A DNA stretch of 13,257 nt from Candidatus Electronema aureum (GTDB lineage: Bacteria > Desulfobacterota > Desulfobulbia > Desulfobulbales > Desulfobulbaceae): assembly GCA_004284765.1 (NCBI GenBank), contig NQJD01000050.1, positions 1 to 13,257 on the forward strand, given 5' to 3'. The notes under the pieces are model-generated. The model did no database searches and had not been told where the DNA came from. It was given only the letters and a program-made list of their open reading frames with translations. The translations under genes were made by a program, and so were the position numbers. Positions 1 through 13,257 of the stretch are shown here, one piece after another (within the stretch, counting starts at the first letter, position 1; the number at the start of each line of letters is the position of its first letter).

Positions 1-245
1 CTTTCATAAGAACGGCGTTTGGCTGGCGGGCATTCGCCCTCTGAAAACTGAGACCAAGTCGGAAGTCAACTTTTTCAATATTATATTGTTTTTAATGGTA
101 AATTCAATGTGTTTTTTAGGGAGCCGTCCGCTTTGCCACTCATGGTTCACCATTACCCAACTTGGGGTATCATAATAATATGGAGCGGTTTCCCCGCTTG
201 AGGTGGAGAGTAGAAAAGGAAGTCCGTTAGGCGGCAGGGGCGGTA

Positions 246-274
246 TTGATAATACTTCCTATATGAGATACACT
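246..274 (+). promoter_or_regulatory. Candidate sigma70-type promoter for the MBL-fold gene
   Basis: -35 TTGATA (246-251), 17-nt spacer, -10 TACACT (269-274), about 60 nt upstream of ATG 335. Consensus match only. Confidence 0.3.
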
Positions 275-334
275 GACAGCAAAGCCTCTAAAAAAACGTC
301 AGAGCAGTAATATATCCCTCACAACCTGTCAATC

Positions 335-1432
335 ATGGAAGACGTACCGATGATGAAGCCTGTTGAACTGCGAAAAAACGTCTGGTGGTTAGCCCATCGT
401 TCTGACTCCCTGCTAGAGGTGAATGTCTATCTCCTCTGTTATCCGCACGAAAAAGGCCAAGCTAACCTCATGATTGACCCTGGCCCGCCAGAGTTACTCA
501 CTTACCTACAAAAGGCGGTTCTTCCGATCACCGGTGGATTAGATAAAATCCAAGCGGTGCTGATCAATCACCAAGACCCAGATGTTGCGCCCAATTCCGC
601 CTACATTCAGAAGCTCAACCCGCAGTGTATGGTGGTCGCTTCAGAAGATACGTGGCGACTCATTCAGTTCTTGGGCCTTAAAGCCAGCCGCTTCAAGGCA
701 GTGGAAAGTTACCGTAATCACCGCGCCATAATGCCGGGCGGCAACCGACTGATCTTTGTTCCCTCTCCTTTCTGCCATTTCCGGGGAGCAATGATGTATT
801 ACGATGAGCGCAGCCGCATCCTTTTTTCCGGCGACCTCTTTGGTGGGCTATCTTACAGTCATGACCTTTATGCCACCGAAGCCTCTTGGGAGGGCATCAA
901 GACCTTTCATCAGCTCTATATGCCCTCGCGTGACGCGCTCAAACTGGCCGTCTCCCGTATTCGCAATCTTGATCCACAGCCAGAGATGATTGCGCCGCAA
1001 CATGGTTCGATCATTCAGGGTGGCCTGATTAAAGATTTCTTAGACAGGATGTACAATCTGGAGGTAGGCTTAGACTTGCTCATTGCCGGAGAAAAGAAGG
1101 AGAATTATCTCGGCGCAGTCAACGAAATTCTCAACGAGTTAGAGAAGGAAGGTTCCGCTGATGCCTTAGCCAAGGGCATTGCTGCTCTCAATCGCGATCG
1201 CTCTTTCACCAGCATCATGACCTTTGTTGGCACCAGAGTAACTGGCTTCAAGGTTGATCCGCCGATTGCGGTCAAAATTCTGCTCGAACATCTCCGCACC
1301 TACGGCGGCACCGGATTAGAAAGTTTGGTCAATTTAGTCGCCCTGAAAACCCTGATCGGTCGCAACATTCCTATCGGCGACATCCTGCCGCAGTCCGGCG
1401 GAGAGCAGGATTTACCGGATTATTTTGAATAA
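335..1432 (+). CDS. Metallo-beta-lactamase-fold protein, flavodiiron/ODP-like di-iron domain, with a non-flavodoxin C-terminal region
   Basis: 365-aa ORF. Motifs are arranged as in FprA/ODP-type MBL domains: 'LINHQDPDV' (H79-x-D81-x-D83-V84, nt 569-586) at the HxExDH position, 'SPFCHFRGAMMYYDERSRILFSGDLFGG', and 'IAPQHGSII'. The last ~120 aa show no flavodoxin-type motif. There is no clear SD before ATG 335. ATG 350/353, preceded by GGAAGA, are alternative starts. Confidence 0.75.
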   Translation: MEDVPMMKPVELRKNVWWLAHRSDSLLEVNVYLLCYPHEKGQANLMIDPGPPELLTYLQKAVLPITGGLDKIQAVLINHQDPDVAPNSAYIQKLNPQCMVVASEDTWRLIQFLGLKASRFKAVESYRNHRAIMPGGNRLIFVPSPFCHFRGAMMYYDERSRILFSGDLFGGLSYSHDLYATEASWEGIKTFHQLYMPSRDALKLAVSRIRNLDPQPEMIAPQHGSIIQGGLIKDFLDRMYNLEVGLDLLIAGEKKENYLGAVNEILNELEKEGSADALAKGIAALNRDRSFTSIMTFVGTRVTGFKVDPPIAVKILLEHLRTYGGTGLESLVNLVALKTLIGRNIPIGDILPQSGGEQDLPDYFE

Positions 1433-1456
1433 TATCAATAAAGGCTGCTGGCTGCC

Positions 1457-2143
1457 ATGAACCGCAAAAACATCCTGATCGTTGACCGGAACAAGGACTT
1501 CATGCAGGAGCTGCGTGAGGCCCTGCTGCCCTACAGCGGTACCTATCAGACCGCCTTTGCTTCCAACACTGCTAAGACGCGTGAAATTTTGAGCCAATTC
1601 ACAGTGCATTTAGTTTTAGCCAATGTCCATCTTTCTGGTGAAAGCGGCATCCAGCTGCTGTTGCATGTGCGCCGCTGGCACGCTGATACCCATGTGGTGC
1701 TGTATAGCGACGATCTCTCTGAGGAGCTGAAGCGTTCTGCGTACCATAGCGGCGTGGCCGCGATCATTGAACATCCCTTTCGTATTGAAGACCTCCTCCG
1801 GCTGCTGACCCGCATTTTTGCACGAGAATCAGGCAGTGCTTTCTTTGACTCAGTTCATTTGGCTGACCTCCTCCAGTTGATCGGTATGGGCCATCATTCC
1901 GCTGATGTGGTGGTAACTAACGCCGCTGACCGGATGCGGGGCATCATTCGCATCCGCAAGGGCAATCTGATCGAGGCTGAGACAACAGAAAAACGAGGCG
2001 TGGAGGCAGTGACAGAAATGCTCTCTTGGCCCTGCCCGACCATCCGCACCTGCCGAGCTGCCTCTGGACTGACCACACCTACCAAAGCAGTACCCTTGCA
2101 TGATGTACTGATGCAGGCCGTGGCCCGACTTGATGAGAAATAG
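1457..2143 (+). CDS. Receiver-like (pseudo-receiver) domain protein with C-terminal DUF4388/PATAN-like domain
   Basis: 228-aa ORF starting 24 nt after the MBL gene. The N-terminus 'NILIVDRN...HLVLANVHLSGESG...VVLYSDD...AAIIEHPF' aligns to the CheY-type receiver. The C-terminal 'VHLADLLQLIGMGHHSADVVVTN...GIIRIRKGNLIEAETTEKRGVEAVTEMLSW' matches the DUF4388 pattern as I remember it. Confidence 0.75.
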   Translation: MNRKNILIVDRNKDFMQELREALLPYSGTYQTAFASNTAKTREILSQFTVHLVLANVHLSGESGIQLLLHVRRWHADTHVVLYSDDLSEELKRSAYHSGVAAIIEHPFRIEDLLRLLTRIFARESGSAFFDSVHLADLLQLIGMGHHSADVVVTNAADRMRGIIRIRKGNLIEAETTEKRGVEAVTEMLSWPCPTIRTCRAASGLTTPTKAVPLHDVLMQAVARLDEK

Positions 2144-2150
2144 CAAAAAA

Positions 2151-2609
2151 TTACTTGCCTTCCGCAATCATGCGGATAATGTCCGACGTGCCGATCACCC
2201 CGATTAATTGCCCGTTCTCATCCAGCACCGGCAGGGTATGTATCTTTTTTTCCGCCATCAGGGTAGCAACTTCCTCCAGCGGACTATCCTGCCGCACAGT
2301 GAGCGGATTGCTGGTGTAAATGTCTTTCACCTTGGTACCAGCCATCTTCATCATTTCCTTTTCCATTTTCTCAGGGTCTTCAAGAAAGAAAAAGGCATCC
2401 AGAATGGCAAAGGCTGTGGGAATATGCACCTTTTTATTTTGAAAGATCAGGTCGCTTTCTGTAACCACGCCGATCACTTTTCCTAAGCCATCAACCACTG
2501 GTACGCCGCTGATTCGGTTAGCGGCTAAAATTTTAGCCAGCTCGCGCACTTCGGTTTCTGCGGTTACGGCGATGACGTTGATGCTCATCAGGTCTTTTGC
2601 TGTCAACAT
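2151..2609 (-). CDS. CBS domain-pair protein
   Basis: 152-aa ORF with two CBS-like repeats ('DLMSINVIAV...ISGVPVVDGLGKVIGVVTESDL' and 'DIYTSNPLTV...IHTLPVLDENGQLIGVIGTSDII'). GAGGAA SD lies just upstream of ATG 2609. It is convergent with the + strand gene ending at 2143 (7-nt gap). Confidence 0.85.
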   Translation of the reverse strand: MLTAKDLMSINVIAVTAETEVRELAKILAANRISGVPVVDGLGKVIGVVTESDLIFQNKKVHIPTAFAILDAFFFLEDPEKMEKEMMKMAGTKVKDIYTSNPLTVRQDSPLEEVATLMAEKKIHTLPVLDENGQLIGVIGTSDIIRMIAEGK

Positions 2610-2620
2610 GCTGTGTTCCT

Positions 2621-4219
2621 CTATTGGTATTGAATTTGGTTTATCTGCGTGACCGCAAAGGGCAGTGCTGCCGCGACCTCTGCTGCGGTGAAACCCTGCC
2701 TTCGTTCCTCGGCCAGCAGGTCAGCGGCCAAGCCGTGCAGGAAAACTCCGGCTGCTGCCGCATCCCAAGGTGTATAGCCTTGCGCCAGCAGTCCGCCGAT
2801 GAATCCGGCCAGCACATCGCCCATGCCACCGACAGCCATACCGCTGTTGCCGCTGCTGTTGATCGCCCAGCCCCCTTTGTTTGAGCAGACCACAGTGCCT
2901 GCGCCTTTCAGCACCGTGATGATTTCGTGGTTGTCTCGGATTTCCGCTTCTGCCAGCCAGTCTGCCGCCTTGAGCCGATCTGCCTGAATCTCCGCTGTCC
3001 GCAAGCCGGTGAGTCGAGCCATTTCGCCGGGATGCGGCGTAAGAATACGCGGCCCGGCAATCTCTCTTATGCAGCATGGCTCCAAGGACAGCAAGTTGAG
3101 CGCATCGGCATCTACCAGCAGAGGCGCGGGCAGCTCTTGGTGTAGTCGCCGTACCAGTTTGCCGGTCTCTGGTGCGGTGCTTAAACCAGGGCCGATAATC
3201 GCCGCATCCTTGTCGGCCATGAGGATGCGGATCAGTTTATAATCAGCCGATGACAGACATCCGTCCGAATGTGGTAGCAGCACCGTCATCGCTTCTGGCA
3301 GACTGGCGGCAAAAATCGGATTCAGTGCAGCTGGCACAGCCAGCGTCACCAAGCCGCAGCCGCTACGCAAGGCCGCTTTGGCTGCTAAGATGGCTGCACC
3401 GGTTTTACCTTCAGAACCGGCCAAAATGAGCAGATGACCGAAGCTACCCTTATGGGCTGCCTTGGCACGAGGCAGCAGCAGCGCAGCGACGCTCCGACGA
3501 TTAAGCAGCTGACCGGACAGTTTGGCAGAAGCAATCACCTGCTCTGGGATCCCGATGTCCACGACCTCTAGTTTACCGACCGCCGTGCCGCCGTGCAGAT
3601 AATGCCCCGGCTTGGGTAAACCGTAGGTCACGGTTAAATCCGCTTCAACCACGCAACCCAGCGGCATTCCAGTCTGAGCACAGAGACCGGAAGGAATATC
3701 CACCGCTGTTATCGGCCAGTGCTGCCGCCGAGCAAGATCATTGATACAACGAACAGCAGCGGCAAAGCGGCCTTCGAGCTTGCGGCTCAGGCCAATGCCG
3801 AACAGAGCATCGACTATACTGTGAATTGGATGATCAAAATGCAGTTGCTTGATTTTATCAATGAGCTGAGAAATTTCCTCTTCTTTGCGAATGATGCAAT
3901 GGGCGATCCAGAGCTTGCCGCAGATGCCCGCATTAATTGCTGCATCACCTTTTAACTGTTCTGGTTCGACCAAAAAAATGAGCAAAGGTGAGCCGCCGCG
4001 TTGAAGAACATGCCGAGCAATCACCAAACCATCGCCGCCGTTATTGCCCGGCCCGATAAAAATGCAAACGCTCTTGCCACCAACTGGACCGAATTGCGCC
4101 TCCATGCAATCAAGCGTCGCTCGGCCTGCGTTTTCCATCAGCACCAAGCAGGGAATGCCGAATTCCTCAATTGCTGCTTGATCGATGGCCTGCATCTGCT
4201 TTGGGGTGGCTATGTTCAT
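2621..4219 (-). CDS. nnr: Bifunctional NAD(P)H-hydrate repair enzyme (NAD(P)HX epimerase / ADP-dependent NAD(P)HX dehydratase)
   Basis: 532-aa ORF. The N-terminal YjeF_N hallmark is 'IFIGPGNNGGDGLV'. C-terminal carbohydrate-kinase-type motifs are 'GHLLILAGSEGKTGAAILAAKAALRSGCGLVTL', 'VLKGAGTVV' and 'GGMGDVLAG'. Confidence 0.9.
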   Translation of the reverse strand: MNIATPKQMQAIDQAAIEEFGIPCLVLMENAGRATLDCMEAQFGPVGGKSVCIFIGPGNNGGDGLVIARHVLQRGGSPLLIFLVEPEQLKGDAAINAGICGKLWIAHCIIRKEEEISQLIDKIKQLHFDHPIHSIVDALFGIGLSRKLEGRFAAAVRCINDLARRQHWPITAVDIPSGLCAQTGMPLGCVVEADLTVTYGLPKPGHYLHGGTAVGKLEVVDIGIPEQVIASAKLSGQLLNRRSVAALLLPRAKAAHKGSFGHLLILAGSEGKTGAAILAAKAALRSGCGLVTLAVPAALNPIFAASLPEAMTVLLPHSDGCLSSADYKLIRILMADKDAAIIGPGLSTAPETGKLVRRLHQELPAPLLVDADALNLLSLEPCCIREIAGPRILTPHPGEMARLTGLRTAEIQADRLKAADWLAEAEIRDNHEIITVLKGAGTVVCSNKGGWAINSSGNSGMAVGGMGDVLAGFIGGLLAQGYTPWDAAAAGVFLHGLAADLLAEERRQGFTAAEVAAALPFAVTQINQIQYQ

Positions 4220-4234
4220 GGGTATCTTGTCTTG

Positions 4235-5248
4235 CTACGGTCGCATCTCTTGCTTTAACATGCAGCAGGAAATGCGATGTTTTAGACTACCGTCTGGGAG
4301 ATAGTCAAGATTATCTGACTGAAGCAGCTTATTCATCACACAGCCTTCAGGGATGCTCAGATTGAAAAAACGGTCTTCGTTCAGACCCTGCTGCTGCACC
4401 AGCTCACTGTTTTCGATACAGAAACTGTGGATGGGGTAATCCTCACAGAGCGGGCAGCGATAGACCCGACCGTTAGGAAAAACGAAGTAATTTTCCGCTG
4501 CTAACCCAGCACAGGAAAAGGATTCACCCGGCTCCAGAAAAACCTTGGGATAGGTGACGTGGATGCCGAGTCGAGCGGCTTGTCGAGCGGTCTCCGGCAC
4601 GACCTCCAGCCAGCCAGCGCGATCAACTTGGAGGTTTTCCGCGCCACCAGTTGCTGAGTTACCGCGCAGTCCGATGACTTGGATAAAAAAACGCTGCACG
4701 CCCAGCTGAGTAAGCAAGGCGGGCATTCGGTGCAAGTGGTCGATGTTCAGGGCAGAAACCGTGCAAATCAGGCTGGTGCGAAAACCGAGCGAAACCGCCT
4801 GGCGTAGGTTCTCTGTGCAAACCGCAAAAACGCCCTTGCCTCGGATGGGATCGTTCACTGCCGCATCTGGTCCATCTAAGCTAAAGCTGAGGAAATCTAA
4901 CTCCACTGGTCTCACCCGCTTCAACAGGTCGTGAAAAAGAAAGCCGTTGGAATCAACAGTTACGGCATAGCGCAGAGCCTTGGCTGCTCGGATGATCGCG
5001 GCCAAATCAGGATGCAAGGTCGGTTCACCGCCGAGCAAAATCAGATTGCTCTCGCGTTCAGGTCGAGCAAAAAGCCGCAGCCATTGCCGCACAGTTTCTG
5101 TGGGCAGCATGGTCGTGCCGTGCTGGGTCGGATTGATATAGCAGTGGCGACAGGAGAGATTGCACTGGGTGAGCAGGTGGAGGAAGACATTGCGCTCACC
5201 GGGTTTAAAATCAACCGTTCGCGCGATCAATTCGTTGAAATTCTGCAC
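4235..5248 (-). CDS. Radical SAM enzyme with C-terminal SPASM/twitch-like cysteine motif, substrate unknown
   Basis: 337-aa ORF. 'CNLSCRHCY' (CxxxCxxC, nt 5141-5164) and 'LLGGEPTL' are present. The C-terminal motif is 'C-x13-G-x4-C-x2-C-x8-C' (nt 4418-4513), with further Cys at 303 and 328-329. The start must be non-ATG (GTG 5248 or TTG 5230), because the first in-frame ATG (M47) lies after the cluster motif. Confidence 0.8.
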   Translation of the reverse strand: MQNFNELIARTVDFKPGERNVFLHLLTQCNLSCRHCYINPTQHGTTMLPTETVRQWLRLFARPERESNLILLGGEPTLHPDLAAIIRAAKALRYAVTVDSNGFLFHDLLKRVRPVELDFLSFSLDGPDAAVNDPIRGKGVFAVCTENLRQAVSLGFRTSLICTVSALNIDHLHRMPALLTQLGVQRFFIQVIGLRGNSATGGAENLQVDRAGWLEVVPETARQAARLGIHVTYPKVFLEPGESFSCAGLAAENYFVFPNGRVYRCPLCEDYPIHSFCIENSELVQQQGLNEDRFFNLSIPEGCVMNKLLQSDNLDYLPDGSLKHRISCCMLKQEMRP

Positions 5249-5738
5249 AAGTGTATGAAGCCAGCAGGCTGCCCTGCCAGTAAGAGTGCTCTTGAAAAAA
5301 GCGAGCGAAGAGAGCCAAACTCTCGTTGCGCAGCAGGCCCGGTAGCAGATCCACGTGCATTTCCCGATAGAGCGGTGCTAACTGCGCTAACGGCAACGCG
5401 GTGCCGCCGCCCATCACGTCTTCATAGGCCCAGATAAAACGGCGGATGCCAGAAAGCAGCAGGGTGCTAAAGCACATCAGGCAGGGTTCGAGTGTCGAAT
5501 ATACCGTAATCTTGCTACAATCCACGCGGGGCTGCTCGGCTAACAGACTGCGCAGGGTGATACTTTCGGCATGATCCAGCTCGTTGCGCGATGCGCTGCC
5601 ACTGTTGCGGCGACGGCCTTGGGCGAGAATTTTTCCATCCAATGCCAGCACACAACCAACCGGAAACTCACCTGCTTCTAACGCCAACTGCGCTTCGGCT
5701 AAAGCCACCTCCATCAATTGCTTATCCTGAACGATCAT
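5211..5738 (-). CDS. CDA-fold nucleoside/nucleotide deaminase (TadA / guanine-deaminase-like)
   Basis: Zinc-deaminase motifs 'HAE' and 'PCxxC' occur in 'ELDHAESITLR...VYSTLEPCLMCFSTLL' (nt 5472-5573). The N-terminus 'MIVQDKQLMEVALAEAQLALEAGEFPVGCVL' is typical for the family, so ATG 5738 is preferred over the track's ATG 5810, which would overlap the upstream gene by 71 nt. No obvious SD. The upstream stop (5740-5742) is 1 nt away, suggesting coupling. Confidence 0.75.
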   Translation of the reverse strand: MIVQDKQLMEVALAEAQLALEAGEFPVGCVLALDGKILAQGRRRNSGSASRNELDHAESITLRSLLAEQPRVDCSKITVYSTLEPCLMCFSTLLLSGIRRFIWAYEDVMGGGTALPLAQLAPLYREMHVDLLPGLLRNESLALFARFFQEHSYWQGSLLASYTCAEFQRIDRANG

Positions 5739-5739
5739 A

Positions 5740-6981
5740 TTACAACGTTCTGCCAAAATGGAGGATACTTTTGTTGATAGCCACGCCGGTCTGCGATTGC
5801 ACCCAGTCATGGTGCTGATCTTGAAAAGGAAGATAAATCAATGAGGTGGCTATCGTTTCTGGCTCTGCGCTGGGTAGCTTAGAATAGAGAGCAGGCCCGT
5901 TGGCGGCGGAGAAGGCCAGCATAACCTTGATGGCTTGCCGTGCCTCATTGAGAGGTAGCGTCACAGGGTATAGATTGGCAACCGCCTTGATTTTCAGGTC
6001 TCTTTCTGTCCCAAGCTGTCGTTGACTGACAGTGATTTGCTTGCCGGTGCGAAGAAAAATTTCTGGCCGTAGCTTAAAAGCTGGAATCCAGAACTGCATG
6101 GCCTGATTGCGCCATTCCGGGCGGACTACCATTGGCTGGTTTGTACGCTCGATGAAATCAGCAAAGGTGCGGATATCCAGAGTAGAAAGCCGGACAGCGA
6201 TCTTCCAAAAAGGTAAGTGCAAGGCTGCCTCATCTTTGTTGCTGAGTATGGTTCTACAAAGCATCCGCTCTAATCCATGAGCAGCAATCTGCCAAGCTGT
6301 ATCGCAGTTGGTGCAGGTAGTTACAAGGCAGTCGCCTTCGCCGTCCAAATTGCCGCCACAGCGTGGACAGAGCGCAGCGAGAAATTTCATTTGCCAGTGC
6401 GACTGAAAAGGGACACCGCCCAAGGCTTGACTTGAGGCGGTCAGTGGTTGCCCTAAAACCGCATCGAACAGCCCGTCTTCCCGGATCAATAGGGGAAGAT
6501 AGATAAAACTGATGATTTCACCAATAAAGGCATGATGATAGACAATGCTATCATTGTTCCCATCGATCAAGTTGTGGAGCTTGGTTGCCTTTTCAAAAAC
6601 CTTTTTGGCTTCAATCGCAAGAGGTAAAAAGCGGCCTTTTGTCTCACTGCTGACCCGAACAAGGCTCATAGTTTGGGGCCGCAGACCGAGGGAAGCGGGC
6701 AATCCGGGCAGGCCGCAGCCGTCTTGGGTGGTGTCCACAATCCGGTGCGAGACCCCAGAAGCAGCCACGGAAAAAATATTGCCCTTGAAACGGAGATAGG
6801 GAGCATAAACTAACCGAGCCTGATCTTTGGCCCGGTTTGGGAGGGAGTAGCGGAACGGCCCACCCCCGGTGAGAAGAAAGTTTTTCACCTTGCAGTAGGG
6901 ACAGGTCAATAAGCGGTCAGCCGCTGAGAGCGTGACCGCACCGCCGCACTGAGGGCAAGGCTGTTCAACCCGGATGTTCAC
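5740..6981 (-). CDS. Hypothetical protein with two zinc ribbons and an internally duplicated architecture
   Basis: 413-aa ORF. Zinc ribbon 1 is 'CPQCGG..x12..CPYC' (nt 6892-6957). Zinc ribbon 2 is 'CPRCGG...C....CTNC' (nt 6304-6369). Each is followed by ~170 aa ending in 'IYLP(L/F)'. The GTG start overlaps the SPFH stop (GTGA, 6978-6981). I recognise no family. Confidence 0.7.
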   Translation of the reverse strand: MNIRVEQPCPQCGGAVTLSAADRLLTCPYCKVKNFLLTGGGPFRYSLPNRAKDQARLVYAPYLRFKGNIFSVAASGVSHRIVDTTQDGCGLPGLPASLGLRPQTMSLVRVSSETKGRFLPLAIEAKKVFEKATKLHNLIDGNNDSIVYHHAFIGEIISFIYLPLLIREDGLFDAVLGQPLTASSQALGGVPFQSHWQMKFLAALCPRCGGNLDGEGDCLVTTCTNCDTAWQIAAHGLERMLCRTILSNKDEAALHLPFWKIAVRLSTLDIRTFADFIERTNQPMVVRPEWRNQAMQFWIPAFKLRPEIFLRTGKQITVSQRQLGTERDLKIKAVANLYPVTLPLNEARQAIKVMLAFSAANGPALYSKLPSAEPETIATSLIYLPFQDQHHDWVQSQTGVAINKSILHFGRTL

Positions 6982-8006
6982 AGCTTCAGGCCGCAGCCGT
7001 GGCAGAATTTAGCCCCAGACAGATTTTCACTATTGCAGGCCGAACAGATAACTGTCGCAGGTTTTTCGTCAGTGGCGTGACCACAATGCGGGCAGAAACG
7101 GGACTCAGCAGCAACAGCTTTACCGCAAGCAGAACATTGTGTTTTTGCAGCAGATTGATTGTTCTGCATTCCAGCGAAGAGATGAGGCATCATCAGTCCC
7201 ATACCCATGCCGAGACCGGCTCCAGCCTCGTTGCCAGCGGCGGCAGCTTTTTCCATCGCCATTGCCGCTTTCATGCGAACAAAGCTATCCATATCCTTGA
7301 TCAGGCCGAGACGGCTGCGGTCGTCGATAGCGGTTTGAACTTCGTCCGGCGGGGTGATGGAGCCGATATAGAGTTCATCTAAGGCCAGTCCGAAGCGGGA
7401 AAAATCGCTGATCAGTAGCTTTTTCAGCTCCTCCGCCATTTCATTAAACTGCGCGGGCAGGCTAAAAAGCGTGTCAAGCGTCTCGCCGAGATAGTCATTG
7501 AGCCGGGAAACAATCACCCGACCCAGATATTCCTCTATTTGCTCAGTGCTGTATTTGCCCATCGTTCCGGCCAAGGTGTTGATGAACAGCACCGGTTGGA
7601 TGACCCGAACATTAAAGATACCATGCGCCCGCAGACGAACAAAGCCCAGCTCGGAATCGCGGAAGGCCACCGGATCACGAGTGCCCCATTTCAGGTTGGG
7701 AAAAACCTTGAGATTAATAAAATAAACCTCAGCGCGCAGCGGACTGGTCATGCCCCACGGCGCAGAGAGCAGCTTGGTGATGATTGGGATGTTGCCGGTG
7801 CGCAAGGTGTGGCGACCCGGCCCGAAGGCATCACCTGCCCTGCCTTTATAATACATGACTGCGGCTTGACTTTCCCGCACAGTGAGCTGGGCACCGAACT
7901 TGATTTCCCCGGAGCCGCGCTCCGGCAGACGGTGCAACAGTTCTTGGCCGGTCTCATCGAACCATTCTAAATTTTCAAGAAAGATCAAGTTGTCAGTACT
8001 ACTCAT
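6978..8006 (-). CDS. SPFH/band-7 (COG4260, YdjI-like) protein with C-terminal double zinc ribbon
   Basis: 342-aa ORF. The N-terminal 'LEWFDETGQELLHRLPERGSGEIKFGAQLTVRESQAAVMYYKGRAGDAFGPGRHTL' matches the YdjI-type SPFH pattern from memory. A Gly/Met-rich linker leads to 'CSACG..FCPHCG' and 'CSACN..FCHGCG' (nt 6993-7136). GGAG SD lies 6 nt upstream of ATG 8006. Confidence 0.85.
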   Translation of the reverse strand: MSSTDNLIFLENLEWFDETGQELLHRLPERGSGEIKFGAQLTVRESQAAVMYYKGRAGDAFGPGRHTLRTGNIPIITKLLSAPWGMTSPLRAEVYFINLKVFPNLKWGTRDPVAFRDSELGFVRLRAHGIFNVRVIQPVLFINTLAGTMGKYSTEQIEEYLGRVIVSRLNDYLGETLDTLFSLPAQFNEMAEELKKLLISDFSRFGLALDELYIGSITPPDEVQTAIDDRSRLGLIKDMDSFVRMKAAMAMEKAAAAGNEAGAGLGMGMGLMMPHLFAGMQNNQSAAKTQCSACGKAVAAESRFCPHCGHATDEKPATVICSACNSENLSGAKFCHGCGLKL

Positions 8007-8030
8007 GGCAGACTCCGGGCGCGGTGATAG

Positions 8031-8522
8031 TTAGAGCTGATACAGAGTTTCATCGCGGACAGGTTGCTTGCTGCCGAAGCGGACTTTCTTCTTCAGCCCG
8101 TCCAAGGAAAAGGCATCATCCGAGTTCAGCGAATCACCCATGTCCTTTTCGACTTCATCAGGGTCTTCGCCTGCCTCCATCCGTGAGATCGCCTCTTCCA
8201 TCTGCTCACCCAAATTGATGCCGGTTTTGTCCGAAAACTTACGCATTAGCTGGGCCATCTGACGGGGATCGTCCTCGTTTAGGCCCTCGGCTTCACGCAT
8301 CAGACCTTCAATAGCCTGTTCCATTTTACTTTCATCAATTCCGGCTAAAGGATCATCATTGCTTTCCTTGGCCTTGCCGATAACAGCAAAGGAGGATATC
8401 TGCCGGTTCAGCTCCTTTCTGCCGCATTTCGGGCAATCCGGGCGTTTTTCGGTGTTGATTCGGCTGGAAAGGAAATTGAAGATCGTGTTGCAGTCTTGGC
8501 AAAGAAATTCGTAAATCGGCAT
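8031..8522 (-). CDS. FmdB-family (CxxC_CxxC_SSSS) zinc-ribbon protein with acidic C-terminal tail
   Basis: 'MPIYEFLCQDCNTIFNFLSSRINTEKRPDCPKCG' (Cys pairs at nt 8424-8501) is the classic FmdB N-terminus, so ATG 8522 is preferred over the track's 8570. The remainder is Asp/Glu-rich. Confidence 0.8.
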   Translation of the reverse strand: MPIYEFLCQDCNTIFNFLSSRINTEKRPDCPKCGRKELNRQISSFAVIGKAKESNDDPLAGIDESKMEQAIEGLMREAEGLNEDDPRQMAQLMRKFSDKTGINLGEQMEEAISRMEAGEDPDEVEKDMGDSLNSDDAFSLDGLKKKVRFGSKQPVRDETLYQL

Positions 8523-8560
8523 GATGGTGTACGCTTCCCTGTATTCTGGGTGGAAAATGA

Positions 8561-8596
8561 AAAAGATCAAGCACCCGCAAGGATACCTGATCTTTT
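8561..8596. terminator. Candidate hairpin separating the DUF1566 genes from the fmdB-led operon
   Basis: A 9-bp inverted repeat, AAAAGATCA (8561-8569) / TGATCTTTT (8588-8596), has an 18-nt loop and T-runs on both strands. The AT-rich stem and large loop make it weak. Confidence 0.3.
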
Positions 8597-8642
8597 TGTT
8601 TTTTTCAACAACTGGGTGGAGCGAGTTTATAGCTAACTACAG

Positions 8643-9182
8643 CTATTGCATATCACGCACGAGGCGGACTCCAAGATTCTCAGAAGAGAGTGAACCATAC
8701 AGCATCTCCGCAAAATAAAAATTAATGTACCATGCATTGCTGGCATCAGGCAAAGGTGAATTGGACCATACAGAAGAGATAGACGTGCTGGGGAATATGG
8801 TCAAATTAATTGCAGGATTATAGCATTGCTCTTCCACGATGGACTGTAGTTCTTTGATGTTTGGTAACCGCCAGTTTTCGTAGTTAGCAAATTTTGTTGC
8901 GTTTGCTACTCCAGGCCGTGCCAGCGCATTGCTCCATGTGTAAAGCGAGGCTGTACCCGCTGCTGCCGCGCAGGTGTTGTTGGCACTGGAATAATTAAAT
9001 CCCTCCGGGCATCTCTTCCACATTAGCTTAGTTTTACTGTCCGTGACGGTACCGTCACTACCTCCTACCAGATGATTGGTTGAGGCAACTATAGTGGTGC
9101 TTTTACATATCTGCTGCTGCGCCTGCGAAGAACCCGCTACAAAAAATAACGCGATAACAAAAAAATATATACGTATCTGCAT
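8643..9182 (-). CDS. Secreted DUF1566 (Lcl C-terminal domain-like) protein
   Basis: The signal peptide 'MQIRIYFFVIALFFVAGSSQA|QQQ' starts at ATG 9182, preceded by AGGAGA. DUF1566 pattern: 'DGTVTDSKTKLMWKRC', 'NWRLPNIKELQSIV', 'VWSNSP...AWYINF', 'GVRLVRD'. Confidence 0.8.
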   Translation of the reverse strand: MQIRIYFFVIALFFVAGSSQAQQQICKSTTIVASTNHLVGGSDGTVTDSKTKLMWKRCPEGFNYSSANNTCAAAAGTASLYTWSNALARPGVANATKFANYENWRLPNIKELQSIVEEQCYNPAINLTIFPSTSISSVWSNSPLPDASNAWYINFYFAEMLYGSLSSENLGVRLVRDMQ

Positions 9183-9204
9183 TGTATATCTCCTGTGGCA
9201 TGAT

Positions 9205-9234
9205 TTTATAAGGTGCTGTGCATATCTCAAGCAA
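9205..9234 (-). promoter_or_regulatory. Candidate promoter for the 8643-9182 gene
   Basis: On the minus strand: -35 TTGCTT (9229-9234), 18-nt spacer, -10 TATAAA (9205-9210), about 20 nt upstream of the SD. Consensus match only. Confidence 0.3.
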
Positions 9235-9248
9235 GCAGGTCAAAACAA

Positions 9249-10118
9249 TCAATTTGCTGTTCTGACTAAAATTACGCTGATGGTGCTGGTTTCTGTCTTG
9301 TAGTACAACCCAAATGTGCTGCCTGTGGTAAATTTAACTGCCCATGCGCTTGCTGGATCTGCGGCATAAGGAGTCGCACTCCAGAAAAACTTGTTGGCTG
9401 TCATCCCGGAAAAATAGTTTTGATCTACAGCCAATGTCGTGCTGCTGCTCTTAACAATACCCAGTAGTTCCTTGATCGTGGGCAGCCGCCAGCCCGACGA
9501 GGCTCCACATAACTTATTTGTATTAGCCAATGCAGCATAACTTTCCGTGTTGGCTCCACCGTTTTCATTGCCAGCATTTCCTCCATTTTTGGAATTATCA
9601 CTGTTGAACCAAGGACGTTCTGAAGGATTGGCTTGTATTTCCCACATCAGGCCGGTGACATTGTCTTTAACACAAGCCCAACTTGTTGCGGATGCGGCAA
9701 GAGCAGTTCCATTGCTATCCAGCTTAGTGAAACTGAATCCTGCATGACCATCAGAAGGAACGGTATCCTGCACTGTTTTATCTCTGCCATAATCAGCGTC
9801 CTCCTGACCAGTGTTTCCTACTTTAGCAGTAATACCGGTGTCATTCAGCCCGCCTGTCGGAGTTGGAGTGCAGGGTTTACAAGGGTCGGCGCAGGTAGGA
9901 TAACAAGGCCCTGCTATACAGCTAGGGTAAGCTATGCACTGAGGATCGCATTTGACACAAGGATCAGGACATCCTGGATAACACTGTGTACAGCCATACG
10001 GTGTGCAATCAGTTTTCTGGACAACAAGAGGCGGTATGTCTAATATCAACTTAGCAGAACCTATTGATGGCACAGTCACAGCAGTCATCAATCCCAATAG
10101 CAAGTACATTTTTTTCAT
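9249..10118 (-). CDS. Secreted DUF1566 (Lcl C-terminal domain-like) protein with N-terminal Cys/Pro-rich module
   Basis: ATG 10118 is preceded by AGGAGG. Signal peptide: 'MKKMYLLLGLMTAVTVPSIGSA|K'. A 12-Cys stretch spans nt 9870-10007. DUF1566 pattern: 'VKDNVTGLMWEI', 'GWRLPTIKELLGIV', 'FWSATP...AWAVKF', 'ILVR'. The track's upstream start (10190) lies upstream of the predicted promoter. Confidence 0.8.
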   Translation of the reverse strand: MKKMYLLLGLMTAVTVPSIGSAKLILDIPPLVVQKTDCTPYGCTQCYPGCPDPCVKCDPQCIAYPSCIAGPCYPTCADPCKPCTPTPTGGLNDTGITAKVGNTGQEDADYGRDKTVQDTVPSDGHAGFSFTKLDSNGTALAASATSWACVKDNVTGLMWEIQANPSERPWFNSDNSKNGGNAGNENGGANTESYAALANTNKLCGASSGWRLPTIKELLGIVKSSSTTLAVDQNYFSGMTANKFFWSATPYAADPASAWAVKFTTGSTFGLYYKTETSTISVILVRTAN

Positions 10119-10148
10119 TGTGAAACCTCCTTGGCAAATTTTCTTTTT

Positions 10149-10157
10149 ATTATAGCA
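10149..10157 (-). promoter_or_regulatory. Extended -10 promoter element (TGcTATAAT) for the 9249-10118 gene
   Basis: The minus strand reads TGCTATAAT (10157-10149), with its 3' end 30 nt upstream of ATG 10118. A possible -35 TTGCGA sits at a 19-nt spacing. Confidence 0.45.
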
Positions 10158-10210
10158 CAAAACAAATTCTCTGTCGCAAATCTTTTGCATAAAACCACCT
10201 CTTTCTTCAC

Positions 10211-10234
10211 GATATTTTTTAACTGATAAATATC
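10211..10234. repeat. AT-rich inverted repeat at the aroB stop codon
   Basis: GATATTT (10211-10217) / AAATATC (10228-10234) with a 10-nt loop. There is no adjacent T-run, so it is not a classical terminator. It could be a weak hairpin or a binding site. Confidence 0.25.
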
Positions 10235-11315
10235 ATGCGGCAAGCACCGTATCCACATCCTCTTCCCGTACTTGATCGGTGATTTTCACCGCACCGATGC
10301 GCTCTGGCAGGACATAGAAGACCCTGCCGCCGACGGTTTTCTTGTCGGTGAGCAAGTATTTCTTTATTTCCTCGCGATTGATATTGGCAGGAATAGCGGT
10401 CGGCAGCCCATAAGCGGCAATCAGGCGGCGGATGCGCTCGGCAGACTCTGTGGTTAAACAACCACTGCAAACGGCCAGTTCCGCCGCCGCACACATGCCG
10501 ATGGCTACTGCATAGCCGTGAATAAGTTGAAAGCCGGAAGCCGCCTCCACTGCATGGCCGATGGTGTGGCCGAAATTGAGAATCCGGCGCAGACCGCCTT
10601 CACGCTCGTCCTGTTCCACCACCCACGCCTTGATCTCGCAGCAGCGGGCGATGAGCTTGGTCAGCACGTCCTGCTGGAGAGCAAAGACAGCTTCACGCTG
10701 CTGCTCCAGAAATGCGAAGAACTCGGCATCGTTGATCACCCCGTACTTGATCACTTCGGCAATACCGCCGCGCAGCTCATCAGCTGGCAAAGTATTCAAC
10801 ACATCGATGTCGATATACACCGCCTTGGGCTGGTAGAACGTGCCGACTAAATTCTTGCCTTCCGGGATGTCCACGCCGGTTTTGCCGCCGACCGAGCTGT
10901 CCACCTGCGAAAGCAGGGTGGTCGGCACTTGAACAAAAGGTATGCCGCGCAGATAGATCGAGGCGAGAAAGCCGGTGATATCACCGGTTACGCCGCCGCC
11001 AAGAGCGATGAGCGCATCTTTGCGGTCAAAACCACGTTGGGCTAATTCGCTGGAAAGCGCGGTGACCGTCTGGAGATGCTTGCTCGCCTCGCCAGCGGGA
11101 AAGGTGAGCAGCTCGGCCCGGATACCTGCATCAGTCAACGACTGCATAAAACGGCTGCCGTGCAGCGCGGCCACCCGGTCGTCGCTGATCACGCCGTATT
11201 TCGTGCCGATGTTCCGTTCGTGCAAATCAATGCCGATTTTCTCCAGCAGGCCAGAGCTGATCCGAATCGGATAACTGCGTTCGTCCAGCCCGACTTTCAC
11301 TAAAGTTTTTGTCAT
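10233..11315 (-). CDS. aroB: 3-dehydroquinate synthase
   Basis: 360-aa ORF with hallmark AroB motifs 'LGGGVTGDITGF', 'VPTTLLSQVDSSVGGKTGV' and 'LNFGHTIGHAVE'. Confidence 0.92.
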   Translation of the reverse strand: MTKTLVKVGLDERSYPIRISSGLLEKIGIDLHERNIGTKYGVISDDRVAALHGSRFMQSLTDAGIRAELLTFPAGEASKHLQTVTALSSELAQRGFDRKDALIALGGGVTGDITGFLASIYLRGIPFVQVPTTLLSQVDSSVGGKTGVDIPEGKNLVGTFYQPKAVYIDIDVLNTLPADELRGGIAEVIKYGVINDAEFFAFLEQQREAVFALQQDVLTKLIARCCEIKAWVVEQDEREGGLRRILNFGHTIGHAVEAASGFQLIHGYAVAIGMCAAAELAVCSGCLTTESAERIRRLIAAYGLPTAIPANINREEIKKYLLTDKKTVGGRVFYVLPERIGAVKITDQVREEDVDTVLAA

Positions 11316-11971
11316 CTTTCGTCTGTCCCCTCGTTCTTCATGAAACCGCTGACGATCGTTTTGAGAAATTTCAAGATGCTGAAAATGGCCTTGAGGTCTT
11401 CATGACGAGTTGCCAAATATCCCTCGCTGATGGAATAACTGCGCTCTTGCAGGGTCATGAAATGCCAGACTTCTCCTTTGACGTAACAGCCATAGACCGG
11501 CAGGCGGTGCTGATTGATCTCCTGCGCGACCAGCATGGCCGCAAGCACCTGTCCGGCAGGATCGCCCTCTGGGTCTTTCTCCTTTTTATATTCGTGTAGG
11601 CAGAAATACGGCTGCTGCGGTTCGCGGAAACCAGAAGCGATGATGCCGTCCGGCCTGCCGTTCATTTCAATCTCATCAACTGTGCCGCTCAAAGAACGTT
11701 CAGCGAAAAAATTGAATTTCTTCGAGCTGAATCTGACAAGTGCCATCACTGGGCCGATGAAATTATAGGCCAGCTCAGTTTCATTCCAGTCATACACATG
11801 TGCTACGAGCAAACTGCGGAATGAATCCAAGACCTCTTGCTCAAAAGGAGAAATTTCAGTTTGACCAGCCAGCCAGCTTTTGAGAACTGGGCTGTCGTCC
11901 GCGACAGTGAGGCCGAAGGTTCGGTCTAATTCAGCCAAAGTCCATTCTTTAAAAGTGCGTACAGATTTCAT
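11312..11971 (-). CDS. PD-(D/E)xK nuclease-fold protein (HsdR-N-terminal-like), function unknown
   Basis: 219-aa ORF. 'GRPDGIIA...YFCLHEYKKE' supplies the D...ExK motif (nt 11585-11650), followed by 'GDPAGQVLAAML'. Its stop overlaps the aroB start (ATGA, 11312-11315). Confidence 0.65.
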   Translation of the reverse strand: MKSVRTFKEWTLAELDRTFGLTVADDSPVLKSWLAGQTEISPFEQEVLDSFRSLLVAHVYDWNETELAYNFIGPVMALVRFSSKKFNFFAERSLSGTVDEIEMNGRPDGIIASGFREPQQPYFCLHEYKKEKDPEGDPAGQVLAAMLVAQEINQHRLPVYGCYVKGEVWHFMTLQERSYSISEGYLATRHEDLKAIFSILKFLKTIVSGFMKNEGTDER

Positions 11972-11995
11972 AATTTTTGATTTTTTAAAAATTCT

Positions 11996-13084
11996 CTATT
12001 CAACGCACCATTTTGGTATCCAAATATATTTTCCTTTAGAATTATAATCTAAAGTTTCATTTCCAGTACATGTTGAACGCGATAAAAACATTTTCATAAA
12101 ACCTTTAACATTAACCGTTGTGATTTTCACTTGATATCTTTCATCTGCTCTTTCTTGAACGATTCCTATCCAATAACTTCCATTATTGAATATAGATACT
12201 TCATCTCCATATGAATATTTATACACTCGAGGAGCAGGAGTGCCTGTGCTGTTGTCGTTCTTAATCTCTCTTTCTTTAGCATTTTGTTCATCTTCGGTTA
12301 GATATCCTTTCTGTAAACGCTCGTAGGCTCTTTTTGCGCCTAAGTGACCTTTATTAAGAGCTTTTCGGCACCAATATTTTGCTTTATTTATATCTGGAAT
12401 AACTGCTATAGCTTCTTGATACGCCCTACATAGATTCCAATAAGCGTATTTATTCTCTTCTTTTTCTGCTGCTTTTTTCCATAAATCTAACGCTTTTTCT
12501 TCGTTAACTGTAAGTCCTCCCGTGCCTTTTTCGTACATCAATCCTAAATTATTCATAGACATGGAGTAACCATTTTCATTTTGAGAATTAATCTCATATA
12601 ATTCTCTAGCTTTTACTAAATCGGCCTCAACTCCATATCCTTTTTGATACATATACGCTAATTTGTGGATCGAATCTTTTACTTCGGCGGATTTCTTGTA
12701 AAATTCAAATGATTTTAAATAATCCTTATTAAAGTACTCACCTCTATAATAGAGACTTCCCATGTTATGGAATGCCTCTTGATATGAATATTTAATTGCC
12801 ATATCAAAATATTCAACACATTTTCTATAACTGTCATTATCATTATTATCCCTTCCCTTTTTTTGGTAGAGTCTTCCGAGTTGGTATAAAATCCGTGCAT
12901 TGTCTGGTTCTTCCTTTAATGCACGGTCACATATTGGAATTGCAATTTTTGGGTTTAGCTCTTCAAATTTAACGCCTTTAATATTGTCAGGCTTCATAGG
13001 GTCTTCTTTATATGACGAATGTTCATCGCATTCTTTTTCCGCAGACGAGAAAGCCTTGCTGTCTACGCAGAAAATAAAAAACAT
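11996..13084 (-). CDS. Sel1-repeat (TPR-like) protein with small C-terminal beta-rich domain
   Basis: There are several Sel1-like units ('AFHNMGSLYYRGEYFNKDYLKSFEFYKKSA', 'KLAYMYQKGYGVEADLVKARELYE', 'MNNLGLMYEKGTGGLTVNEEKALDLWKKAA'). The gene is visibly AT-rich compared with its neighbours. The start is ambiguous. ATG 13084 gives 'MFFIFCVDSKAFS'. The track's TTG 13126 gives a better signal-peptide n-region but overlaps the transposase 3' end. Confidence 0.8.
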   Translation of the reverse strand: MFFIFCVDSKAFSSAEKECDEHSSYKEDPMKPDNIKGVKFEELNPKIAIPICDRALKEEPDNARILYQLGRLYQKKGRDNNDNDSYRKCVEYFDMAIKYSYQEAFHNMGSLYYRGEYFNKDYLKSFEFYKKSAEVKDSIHKLAYMYQKGYGVEADLVKARELYEINSQNENGYSMSMNNLGLMYEKGTGGLTVNEEKALDLWKKAAEKEENKYAYWNLCRAYQEAIAVIPDINKAKYWCRKALNKGHLGAKRAYERLQKGYLTEDEQNAKEREIKNDNSTGTPAPRVYKYSYGDEVSIFNNGSYWIGIVQERADERYQVKITTVNVKGFMKMFLSRSTCTGNETLDYNSKGKYIWIPKWCVE

Positions 13085-13106
13085 AACTATTAACCCAAGT
13101 TGTGAC

Positions 13107-13257
13107 CTATAACATTGTTTTTTCAATGCCGTAAGCCAAGATAAAAAGAAAAACCTTCAATTCAAAGCCATGCGAGGTGACAGCATGAATATGCGCTGGA
13201 AATCTTTGGGTGATGACGCTGAATGCTGATTCGATGCGCTTTCGGATGAATTTGACT
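13107..13257 (-). mobile_element. 3' end of a DDE transposase gene (IS982-like), truncated by the window edge
   Basis: Not in the ORF track (only 49 codons fall in the window). Minus-strand translation from 13256 gives 'VKFIRKRIESAFSVITQRFPAHIHAVTSHGFELKVFLFILAYGIEKTML*' with stop TAG at 13107-13109. 'RKRIExxFSxI...GF..K' is the C-terminal E-containing block of IS982/IS4-type transposases as I remember them. Confidence 0.55.

Follow-up and report, generated by a model that had tools for sequence, protein, structure and literature searches.

A 13,257-nucleotide (nt) stretch from Candidatus Electronema aureum, a freshwater cable bacterium of the Desulfobulbales (assembly GCA_004284765.1, contig NQJD01000050.1, positions 1 to 13,257; the whole stretch is called the window below), carries on its minus strand a compact run of five genes. 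These encode an FmdB-type zinc-ribbon protein, an SPFH protein, a 413-residue protein of no named family (U413), a deaminase and a radical SAM enzyme (RSAM). A sequence-only reading of this DNA had taken the five genes for one module. We propose, with moderate confidence, that the run consists of three units (fmdB; SPFH-U413; deaminase-radical SAM) that were compacted in Electronema, probably into one transcript, and that the SPFH protein and U413 are a scaffold and its partner. The 'module' would then be a genus-specific operon merger, since the two enzymes are confined to Desulfobulbales, their genes have a promoter motif of their own in relatives and the radical SAM gene is relocated in Electrothrix sp. 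YB6.

The five genes belong to a head-to-tail series of seven minus-strand genes, which runs as follows:

8031..8522, minus strand: fmdB, ATG at 8522 and stop at 8033-8031; 163 residues, FmdB-family zinc ribbon
8007..8030, minus strand: fmdB-SPFH spacer of 24 nt, with a GGAG ribosome-binding site read from the sequence
6978..8006, minus strand: SPFH gene, ATG at 8006 and TGA at 6980-6978; 342 residues, Band_7_1 plus two C-terminal zinc ribbons
5740..6981, minus strand: U413 gene, GTG at 6981 and TAA at 5742-5740; 413 residues
5211..5738, minus strand: deaminase gene, ATG at 5738 and TGA at 5213-5211; 175 residues, TadA-like cytidine deaminase (CDA) fold
4235..5248, minus strand: radical SAM gene, GTG at 5248 or TTG at 5230 and TAG at 4237-4235; 337 residues
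2621..4219, minus strand: nnr, bifunctional NAD(P)H-hydrate epimerase/dehydratase with YjeF_N and Carb_kinase matches
2151..2609, minus strand: CBS-pair gene, last of the run; CBS domain at 111 bits

Recomputation of the junctions of the five genes gave the values reported from the letters alone: besides the 24-nt spacer, the U413 GTG start overlaps the SPFH stop as GTGA (6978-6981), a 1-nt gap (5739) separates U413 from the deaminase gene, and the deaminase and radical SAM genes overlap by 38 nt from the GTG start or 20 nt from the TTG start. The run continues, as had also been noted, into nnr and the CBS-pair gene across spacers of 15 and 11 nt; this continuation after the radical SAM gene was confined to E. 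aureum and Ca. E. nielsenii (locus L001), whose U413 is 98% identical to that of the window. Tight gene packing is ordinary in bacterial operons. What goes beyond chance is not the packing but the adjacency of SPFH and U413, which recurs across lineages.

This recurrence was established on the best 80 of 235 genome loci holding a relative of U413. The window proteins were mapped onto these loci by tblastn, all open reading frames were clustered, and taxonomy (for example Desulfobulbales-type) was assigned by record title. The SPFH gene lay directly upstream of U413 in 70 of the 79 loci evaluable for its position, at a median distance of 21 nt (≤30 nt in 40/69). Six additional, more distant U413 loci, from Syntrophobacteraceae, Desulfatibacillum, Nitrospirota and metagenomes, gave the same picture: all six had a Band_7_1 plus DZR gene immediately upstream of U413, often overlapping it, amid unrelated flanking genes that included neither a deaminase nor a radical SAM gene. 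At the Nitrospirota locus the upstream gene is represented on the contig by its C-terminal part alone. SPFH-U413 is the sole part of the run that travels together across orders and phyla (at least two phyla).

The enzymes behaved differently from the pair. SPFH-U413-deaminase was found at 46 loci, all Desulfobulbales-type, with the radical SAM gene next in most of them, and SPFH-U413 occurred with neither enzyme at 12 loci whose downstream sequence extends for 1.5 kb or more, mostly labelled Desulfobacteraceae or Thermodesulfobacteriota. Co-occurrence of the deaminase and radical SAM genes with SPFH-U413 across phyla, on which the idea of a module had been made to depend, was not borne out, the neighbourhood analysis confining both enzymes to Desulfobulbales. 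The proposed operonic fusion with the enzymes survives in so far as the genes are likely co-transcribed in Electronema; as a general link it fails outside Desulfobulbales, at the 12 enzyme-free loci and at 6/6 distant ones. What comes after the radical SAM gene in most Desulfobulbaceae is a gene for a TPR-methyltransferase, and after that the oppositely oriented tatC and tatB.

The fmdB gene is outside the conserved core, and its linkage to the rest is loose. In relatives its distance to SPFH had a median of 276 nt and a maximum of 6.3 kb, frequently with a 6-phosphofructo-2-kinase/phosphatase gene interposed, and Desulfobacterales-type loci were without it. The window protein itself is a clear family member, matching TIGR02605 at 51.7 bits (cut-off 31.3) and Zn_ribbon_8 (PF09723) at 48.1 bits (cut-off 34.4), with its zinc ribbon at C8/C11...C30/C33 (8424-8501) and an acidic C-terminal tail.

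Spacing and promoter motifs separated SPFH-U413 from the enzyme genes in relatives. The deaminase-to-radical-SAM gap had a median of -7.5 nt and was ≤30 nt in 35/42 loci; the U413-to-deaminase gap had a median of 96 nt, and the eight gaps of ≤30 nt were those of seven Electronema loci and Electrothrix L016. A near-invariant sigma-70-type element, TTGACA-N17-TATAG/T, was present in 21/42 U413-deaminase spacers (60-400 nt long). Over 1.97 Mb of loci, counted on both strands, this pattern had 22 matches, 21 of them in these spacers. The element (TTGACA-N17-TGGTATAG) has an extended -10 TG and stands 26-66 nt before the deaminase start; the spacers bearing it are those of L025, L036, L038 (~9240-9330, for example), L040-L050, L052, L056, L059-L061, L072 and L080. 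Independent promoters between U413 and the deaminase gene had been named as an observation that would speak against a single unit. Half of the relatives' spacers thus hold a candidate, as a motif and not as a mapped transcript, and the window holds none.

A second set of motifs preceded SPFH. A [CG]TATA[AC]T -10 element was found 25-120 nt upstream of SPFH in 33/66 relatives (0.012 expected per search window), and five Desulfobacterales-type loci (L063, L065, L068, L071 and L074) had a sigma-54-type TGGCAY-N5-TTGCW site 56-114 nt before the SPFH start, accounting for 5 of the 14 matches to this pattern in all loci. No enhancer-binding protein gene was seen beside these five sites. Such sites before SPFH-U413 recall the psp operon of E. 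coli, which is under sigma-54 control. The occurrence of a sigma-70-type -10 element in Desulfobulbaceae and of sigma-54-type sites in some Desulfobacterales-type loci suggests that SPFH-U413 expression is regulated, possibly in response to stress. Because their promoter motifs are separate, SPFH-U413 and deaminase-radical SAM look like two transcription units in sister genera. None of these three elements (TTGACA-N17-TATAG, [CG]TATA[AC]T or sigma-54-type) was present in the window, and nothing promoter-like was seen in its fmdB-SPFH spacer. Generic promoter and terminator scans of the window gave no excess over shuffled controls, and an Rfam search of it returned no RNA element. With the spacers collapsed and no internal promoter-like site, co-transcription in Electronema appears likely.

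Rearrangements in Electrothrix showed the units to be separable. In Electrothrix sp. AR4 the order U413-deaminase-radical SAM-TPR-methyltransferase is intact. In Electrothrix sp. YB6 a distance of ~1.2 Mb separates the radical SAM and TPR-methyltransferase genes, which adjoin a DDE_5 transposase gene, from U413-deaminase; the latter stands after tsaD and ksgA and before an MFS transporter gene. At other Electrothrix loci a hybrid histidine kinase gene precedes U413-deaminase. The arrangement U413-deaminase-MFS transporter with no adjacent SPFH was seen in Electrothrix at, for example, L016:5609-11418 and L081:7349-10288.

A separate gene neighbourhood was noted in one Desulfobacterales-type clade (L055, L058, L062, L068, L070, L075 and L079), where a tetrapyrrole/heme-synthesis cluster adjoins SPFH-U413 upstream. 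It holds two SPASM-type radical SAM genes, hemB (delta-aminolevulinate dehydratase) and a siroheme-decarboxylase-like (NirDL) gene. The radical SAM genes that lie close to the pair in Desulfobacterales-type loci were considered as counterparts of RSAM and rejected, being SPASM-type with 24-27% identity to it; those of the heme cluster explain the spurious weak radical SAM matches in that clade.

The domain calls made from the letters (FmdB, SPFH with a double zinc ribbon, CDA deaminase, radical SAM) were confirmed with Pfam and NCBIfam, and all five zinc ribbons were recovered at the same positions from the translations. Judged by sequence and architecture, the window SPFH is a YdjI-type cytosolic SPFH protein. 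It matched PF13421 (Band_7_1) at 204.2 bits against a cut-off of 24, with further matches to DZR, Zn_ribbon_3, Zn_Ribbon_1 and PF01145 (47 bits), and its two CxxC...CxxC units span C291...C338 (6993-7136). BLASTP aligned it with Bacillus subtilis YdjI over its full length (27% identity, residues 13-342, E 2e-30), an alignment that includes a Gly/Met-rich linker and the terminal ribbon, and no transmembrane helix was found in it (maximum Kyte-Doolittle 19-residue average 1.21), so that the earlier assignment to the YdjI type held.

The linker (AGAGLGMGMGLMMPHLFAGM, window 7170-7250, residues ~255-280) is Gly/Met-rich and moderately hydrophobic, and connects the SPFH/coiled-coil part to the ribbons. 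Its character is kept from B. subtilis YdjI to the Nitrospirota homologue (L085:3-410; L088:5821-6792). It may be a membrane-contact segment.

U413 matched no family in Pfam or NCBIfam. It has two zinc ribbons, C9/C12/C27/C30 (6892-6957) and C205/C208/C223/C226 (6304-6369), and hhalign shows its N-terminal half to be homologous to its C-terminal half (probability 89%, E 2.3e-6, 79 columns), revealing an internal duplication with the architecture of two copies of a zinc ribbon plus a beta-rich domain. The eight cysteines were invariant in 69 representatives 28-48% identical to the window protein, together with a few Pro/aromatic motifs (PY, PFW, PAF, LPF). In a profile search the family comprised 1124 clusters (50% identity), of which 455 had E ≤ 1e-30; among the matches listed, nearly all members are ~400-450 residues long and match over their full length. 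Members with a named source belong to Electronema, Electrothrix, Desulfobulbus, Desulfatibacillum, Syntrophobacteraceae and Nitrospirota, and database labels call them 'hypothetical' or misname them after the ribbon. No transmembrane helix was found in U413, and no relatives in viral contigs. An AlphaFold2 model was obtained with a predicted local distance difference test (pLDDT) of 82.9 and a predicted template modelling score (pTM) of 0.79; Foldseek searches of this model against PDB and BFVD gave no match at E ≤ 0.001, the ribbons alone aligning locally. With a confident model that has no fold match, and with invariant cysteines, prolines and aromatics but no catalytic-looking set, U413 looks structural rather than enzymatic.

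One metagenome-assembled genome (L087:1-6509) carries SPFH followed by three U413 paralogues of 523, 494 and 502 residues, with a gene for a DUF502 membrane protein separating the second paralogue from the third.

The known system closest in outline is pspA-ydjGHI (samGHI), for which the pspA-ydjG-ydjH-ydjI locus of B. subtilis served as our reference. There the cytosolic SPFH protein YdjI/SamI is recruited by the membrane proteins YdjG and YdjH and in turn localises PspA (PMC8581546; bioRxiv 10.64898/2026.02.06.704340), and in YdjG two zinc ribbons are combined with an NTF2-like domain and a transmembrane segment (PMC11237479). Both systems have a homologous Band_7_1 SPFH protein with a Gly/Met-rich linker and C-terminal ribbon, and in both it is encoded with a partner bearing two zinc ribbons (PMC8581546; PMC11237479). 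The window differs in gene order, with SPFH first and the partner second, and in the number of C-terminal ribbons on the SPFH protein, two as against one in YdjI. U413, moreover, is soluble and built as a duplicated ribbon-plus-domain unit, whereas YdjG has the NTF2-like domain and transmembrane segment. The sequence-only reading had likened the partner to YdjG: the coupling of SPFH to a zinc-ribbon protein stood, and the homology did not. In hhalign comparisons, 31-34 zinc-ribbon columns of U413 and YdjG aligned and nothing else, and with the ribbons removed the probability was ≤5%. Given this last value, an 'x-P-F/Y-W/L' motif common to both at the starts of long beta-strands is not claimed as homology. 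The AlphaFold2 model of YdjG (pLDDT 52.7) was not used for a fold comparison with U413.

The absence of PspA, which had been remarked on for this stretch, extended to the loci examined: tblastn against 87 non-Bacillus loci, covering ~8 kb on each side of U413 where the contig permits, returned no match to PspA/IM30, to YdjG or to the TPM-domain (TPM_phosphatase) protein YdjH. As the U413-YdjG match is limited to the ribbons and these loci hold no PspA, YdjG or YdjH, the window pair, by these comparisons, resembles YdjI plus a partner in outline and does not belong to the pspA-ydjGHI system. It differs also from HflK/C, flotillins and stomatin/QmcA. These have the SPFH/Band 7 domain in common with it and, like it, are expected to form oligomeric scaffolds, but have a transmembrane helix or hairpin of their own, which the window SPFH, of the Band_7_1 subfamily, does not.

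The reading that we favour can be stated as a mechanism for each unit. The first unit would be a stand-alone fmdB-type zinc-ribbon gene. In the second, a soluble YdjI-type SPFH protein would, by analogy with YdjI, form an oligomeric sub-membrane scaffold, and the soluble, duplicated U413 would be the dedicated partner or adaptor that such a scaffold presumably requires for its positioning or regulation. U413 would in this way replace the membrane anchors YdjG and YdjH functionally, not by homology, and without an adjacent PspA. The third unit would be the Desulfobulbales-restricted deaminase and radical SAM pair, usually followed by the TPR-methyltransferase gene and probably read from its own promoter in sister genera. 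Its substrate is most likely of the nucleobase/nucleoside type or RNA, the substrate class being one that we infer, and its activity a housekeeping one of the lineage. More tentatively, we suggest that U413 represents a large unnamed family (>1100 clusters), soluble, duplicated and with a fold lacking a solved match, that is the obligate partner of a YdjI-type SPFH protein in Desulfobacterota and Nitrospirota; the two would make up a two-component SPFH system without PspA or membrane anchor, sigma-54-controlled in some lineages, and fused and co-regulated in Electronema with a TadA-like deaminase and radical SAM pair.

The deaminase matched dCMP_cyt_deam_1 (PF00383) at 67.1 bits against a cut-off of 25 and has the zinc-binding motifs DHAE and EPCLMC. 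With TadA it has in common the CDA fold, the zinc site formed by HAE and PCxxC, roughly the same length and an FF motif in a C-terminal helix, and its best matches were TadA models and structures over the full length (nearest solved TadA 7cph, E 1.5e-15). Unlike TadA, it is below the equivalog threshold (NF008113, 64.4 bits against a cut-off of 150; three orthologues at 74.8-82.6 bits), it is acidic, with a net charge of ~-4 counted from the sequence, and it has no basic C-terminal tail.

RSAM matched PF04055 at 75.7 bits and was above threshold for no characterised family; against NCBIfam equivalogs it was far under every cut-off (best ScmF, 86 against 400). Its CX3CX2C motif (C29/C33/C36) was kept in 99-100% of 120 orthologues, and seven other cysteines were invariant (C144, C246, C265, C268, C303, C328 and C329). 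It shares this motif and a Cys-rich C-terminal domain with C-x13-G-x4-C with twitch/SPASM enzymes of the BlsE/MoaA/PqqE/ScmF type, the nearest solved relative being BlsE (E 4.5e-11). Unlike them, it had no match to the Pfam SPASM model (PF13186), and its six invariant C-terminal cysteines, which include the twitch-like C246-x13-G-x4-C265, are non-canonically spaced. Within Desulfobulbales the protein is 70-82% identical, a conservation equal to that of AroB, which suggests a housekeeping role in the lineage. Our literature search found no paper on SPFH proteins in cable bacteria, nor on this pairing of deaminase and radical SAM enzyme.

A trigger by infection had been suggested for the run, and this part of the sequence-only reading failed. 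PADLOC found no defence system in the window: it gave zero matches for FmdB, SPFH, U413, deaminase, Nnr and CBS, and for RSAM a partial pVip match to the same generic core region that matched the viperin model NF038283 (62.4 bits, cut-off 180, residues 21-135 alone). PHROGs and a viral-contig scan gave no phage signal. A defence reading was rejected on these searches, all negative or generic.

Three other explanations of the run were weighed against the three-unit reading. In the one from which the analysis started, the five genes make up one module, whose nucleotide- or RNA-modifying enzyme pair is controlled by a YdjI/YdjG-like membrane sensor or scaffold on envelope stress or infection. The translational coupling of the genes in all eight Electronema loci (U413-deaminase gaps of -7 to +1 nt, 38-nt deaminase/radical SAM overlap), the persistence of the SPFH-U413-deaminase-radical SAM order in ~46 Desulfobulbales loci and the weakly viperin-like core of RSAM all fit such a module. 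Yet an association limited to one order is compatible with inherited synteny, the pair does without the enzymes in 12 loci with adequate downstream sequence and in 6/6 distant loci, relatives keep a promoter motif between U413 and the deaminase gene, and YB6 has split off the radical SAM gene. The viperin matches concern the generic N-terminal core (62 against a cut-off of 180), PADLOC and viral searches were negative, and a membrane component is absent among the proteins, none of the five (fmdB to radical SAM) having a transmembrane-compatible hydrophobic stretch. We regard this explanation as improbable. Slightly easier to entertain, though still unlikely, is that the deaminase is a divergent housekeeping TadA, RSAM an unrelated housekeeping enzyme, and synteny alone links all genes, SPFH-U413 included. 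The full-length resemblance of the deaminase to TadA models and structures, down to the C-terminal FF helix, is in keeping with this, as are the AroB-like conservation of RSAM across the family and the housekeeping neighbours aroB, tatBC and nnr. Scores of 64-83 bits in four orthologues against a 150-bit cut-off, and an acidic deaminase with no basic C-terminal tail, do not suit a TadA, and synteny alone leaves unexplained why SPFH-U413 adjacency recurs across phyla in unrelated contexts.

The Electrothrix loci prompt a different pairing, with U413 as a zinc-ribbon RNA- or substrate-binding partner of the TadA-like enzyme and not of SPFH. Seven of them retain U413 and the deaminase gene (gaps 8-110 nt) in the absence of SPFH and with the radical SAM gene missing or moved, and in YB6 the two follow the RNA-modification genes tsaD and ksgA. 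Outside Desulfobulbales, however, U413 was always with SPFH and never with the deaminase in the loci examined, the U413-deaminase spacer usually contains the promoter motif, and U413 matches no known RNA-binding fold. This partnership is very improbable in our view.

Several points nonetheless weigh against the three-unit reading with its SPFH-U413 scaffold and partner. The physical interaction of SPFH with U413 is one that we infer, and neither protein has a membrane anchor, the presumed membrane association being assumed from the family alone. The window genes are probably all co-expressed, because they are tightly coupled with no internal promoter-like site, and functional coupling could have been acquired in Electronema. 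Inspection covered 80 of the 235 genome loci, those that matched best, plus the 6 distant ones. SPFH was missing upstream of U413 at eight Electrothrix-type loci (L009-L016) and one metagenome-assembled genome (L058): seven of these (L010-L016) retain U413 and the deaminase gene with no SPFH gene within 8 kb, and L009 and L058 have U413 with neither neighbour. In view of these nine loci, U413 may have a role that does not involve SPFH, or the SPFH gene may simply lie at another place in the genomes concerned.

B. subtilis YdjI/SamI, a protein dependent on YdjG, YdjH and PspA, is the sole source of what is understood about anchor-less bacterial SPFH proteins. If the SPFH-U413 proposal is true, there is an alternative partner, widespread and of unrecognised fold, and this SPFH subfamily uses interchangeable adaptors. 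The pair would also offer a defined two-gene system for asking what such scaffolds organise in anaerobic sulfur-cycle bacteria, cable bacteria among them. The deaminase and radical SAM enzyme, with the TPR-methyltransferase, form a separate, highly conserved Desulfobulbales enzyme pair without an assigned reaction. A caution also follows for reading single genomes, where translational coupling can stem from a recent operon merger and not necessarily from a functional module.

Elsewhere in the window, a minus-strand gene at 11996-13126 encodes a 376-residue Sel1-repeat protein with a signal-peptide-like N-terminus; it lies in a region of 33-34% GC, against ~52% in the remainder of the window, and was probably horizontally acquired. 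A 219-residue open reading frame (11312-11971, minus strand) has no Pfam match and no relative among the fetched loci, and there is a 4-nt overlap between its stop and the start of aroB. Between aroB and fmdB lie tandem genes for Lcl_C (DUF1566) proteins with hydrophobic N-termini (8643-9230 and 9249-10190, minus strand); this tandem was found in Electronema loci alone, and aroB abuts fmdB in other Desulfobulbaceae. At the other end, plus-strand genes at 335-2143 encode an ODP-family metallo-beta-lactamase-fold protein and then a response-regulator receiver fused to DUF4388, and converge on the CBS-pair gene with 7 nt between the stop codons.

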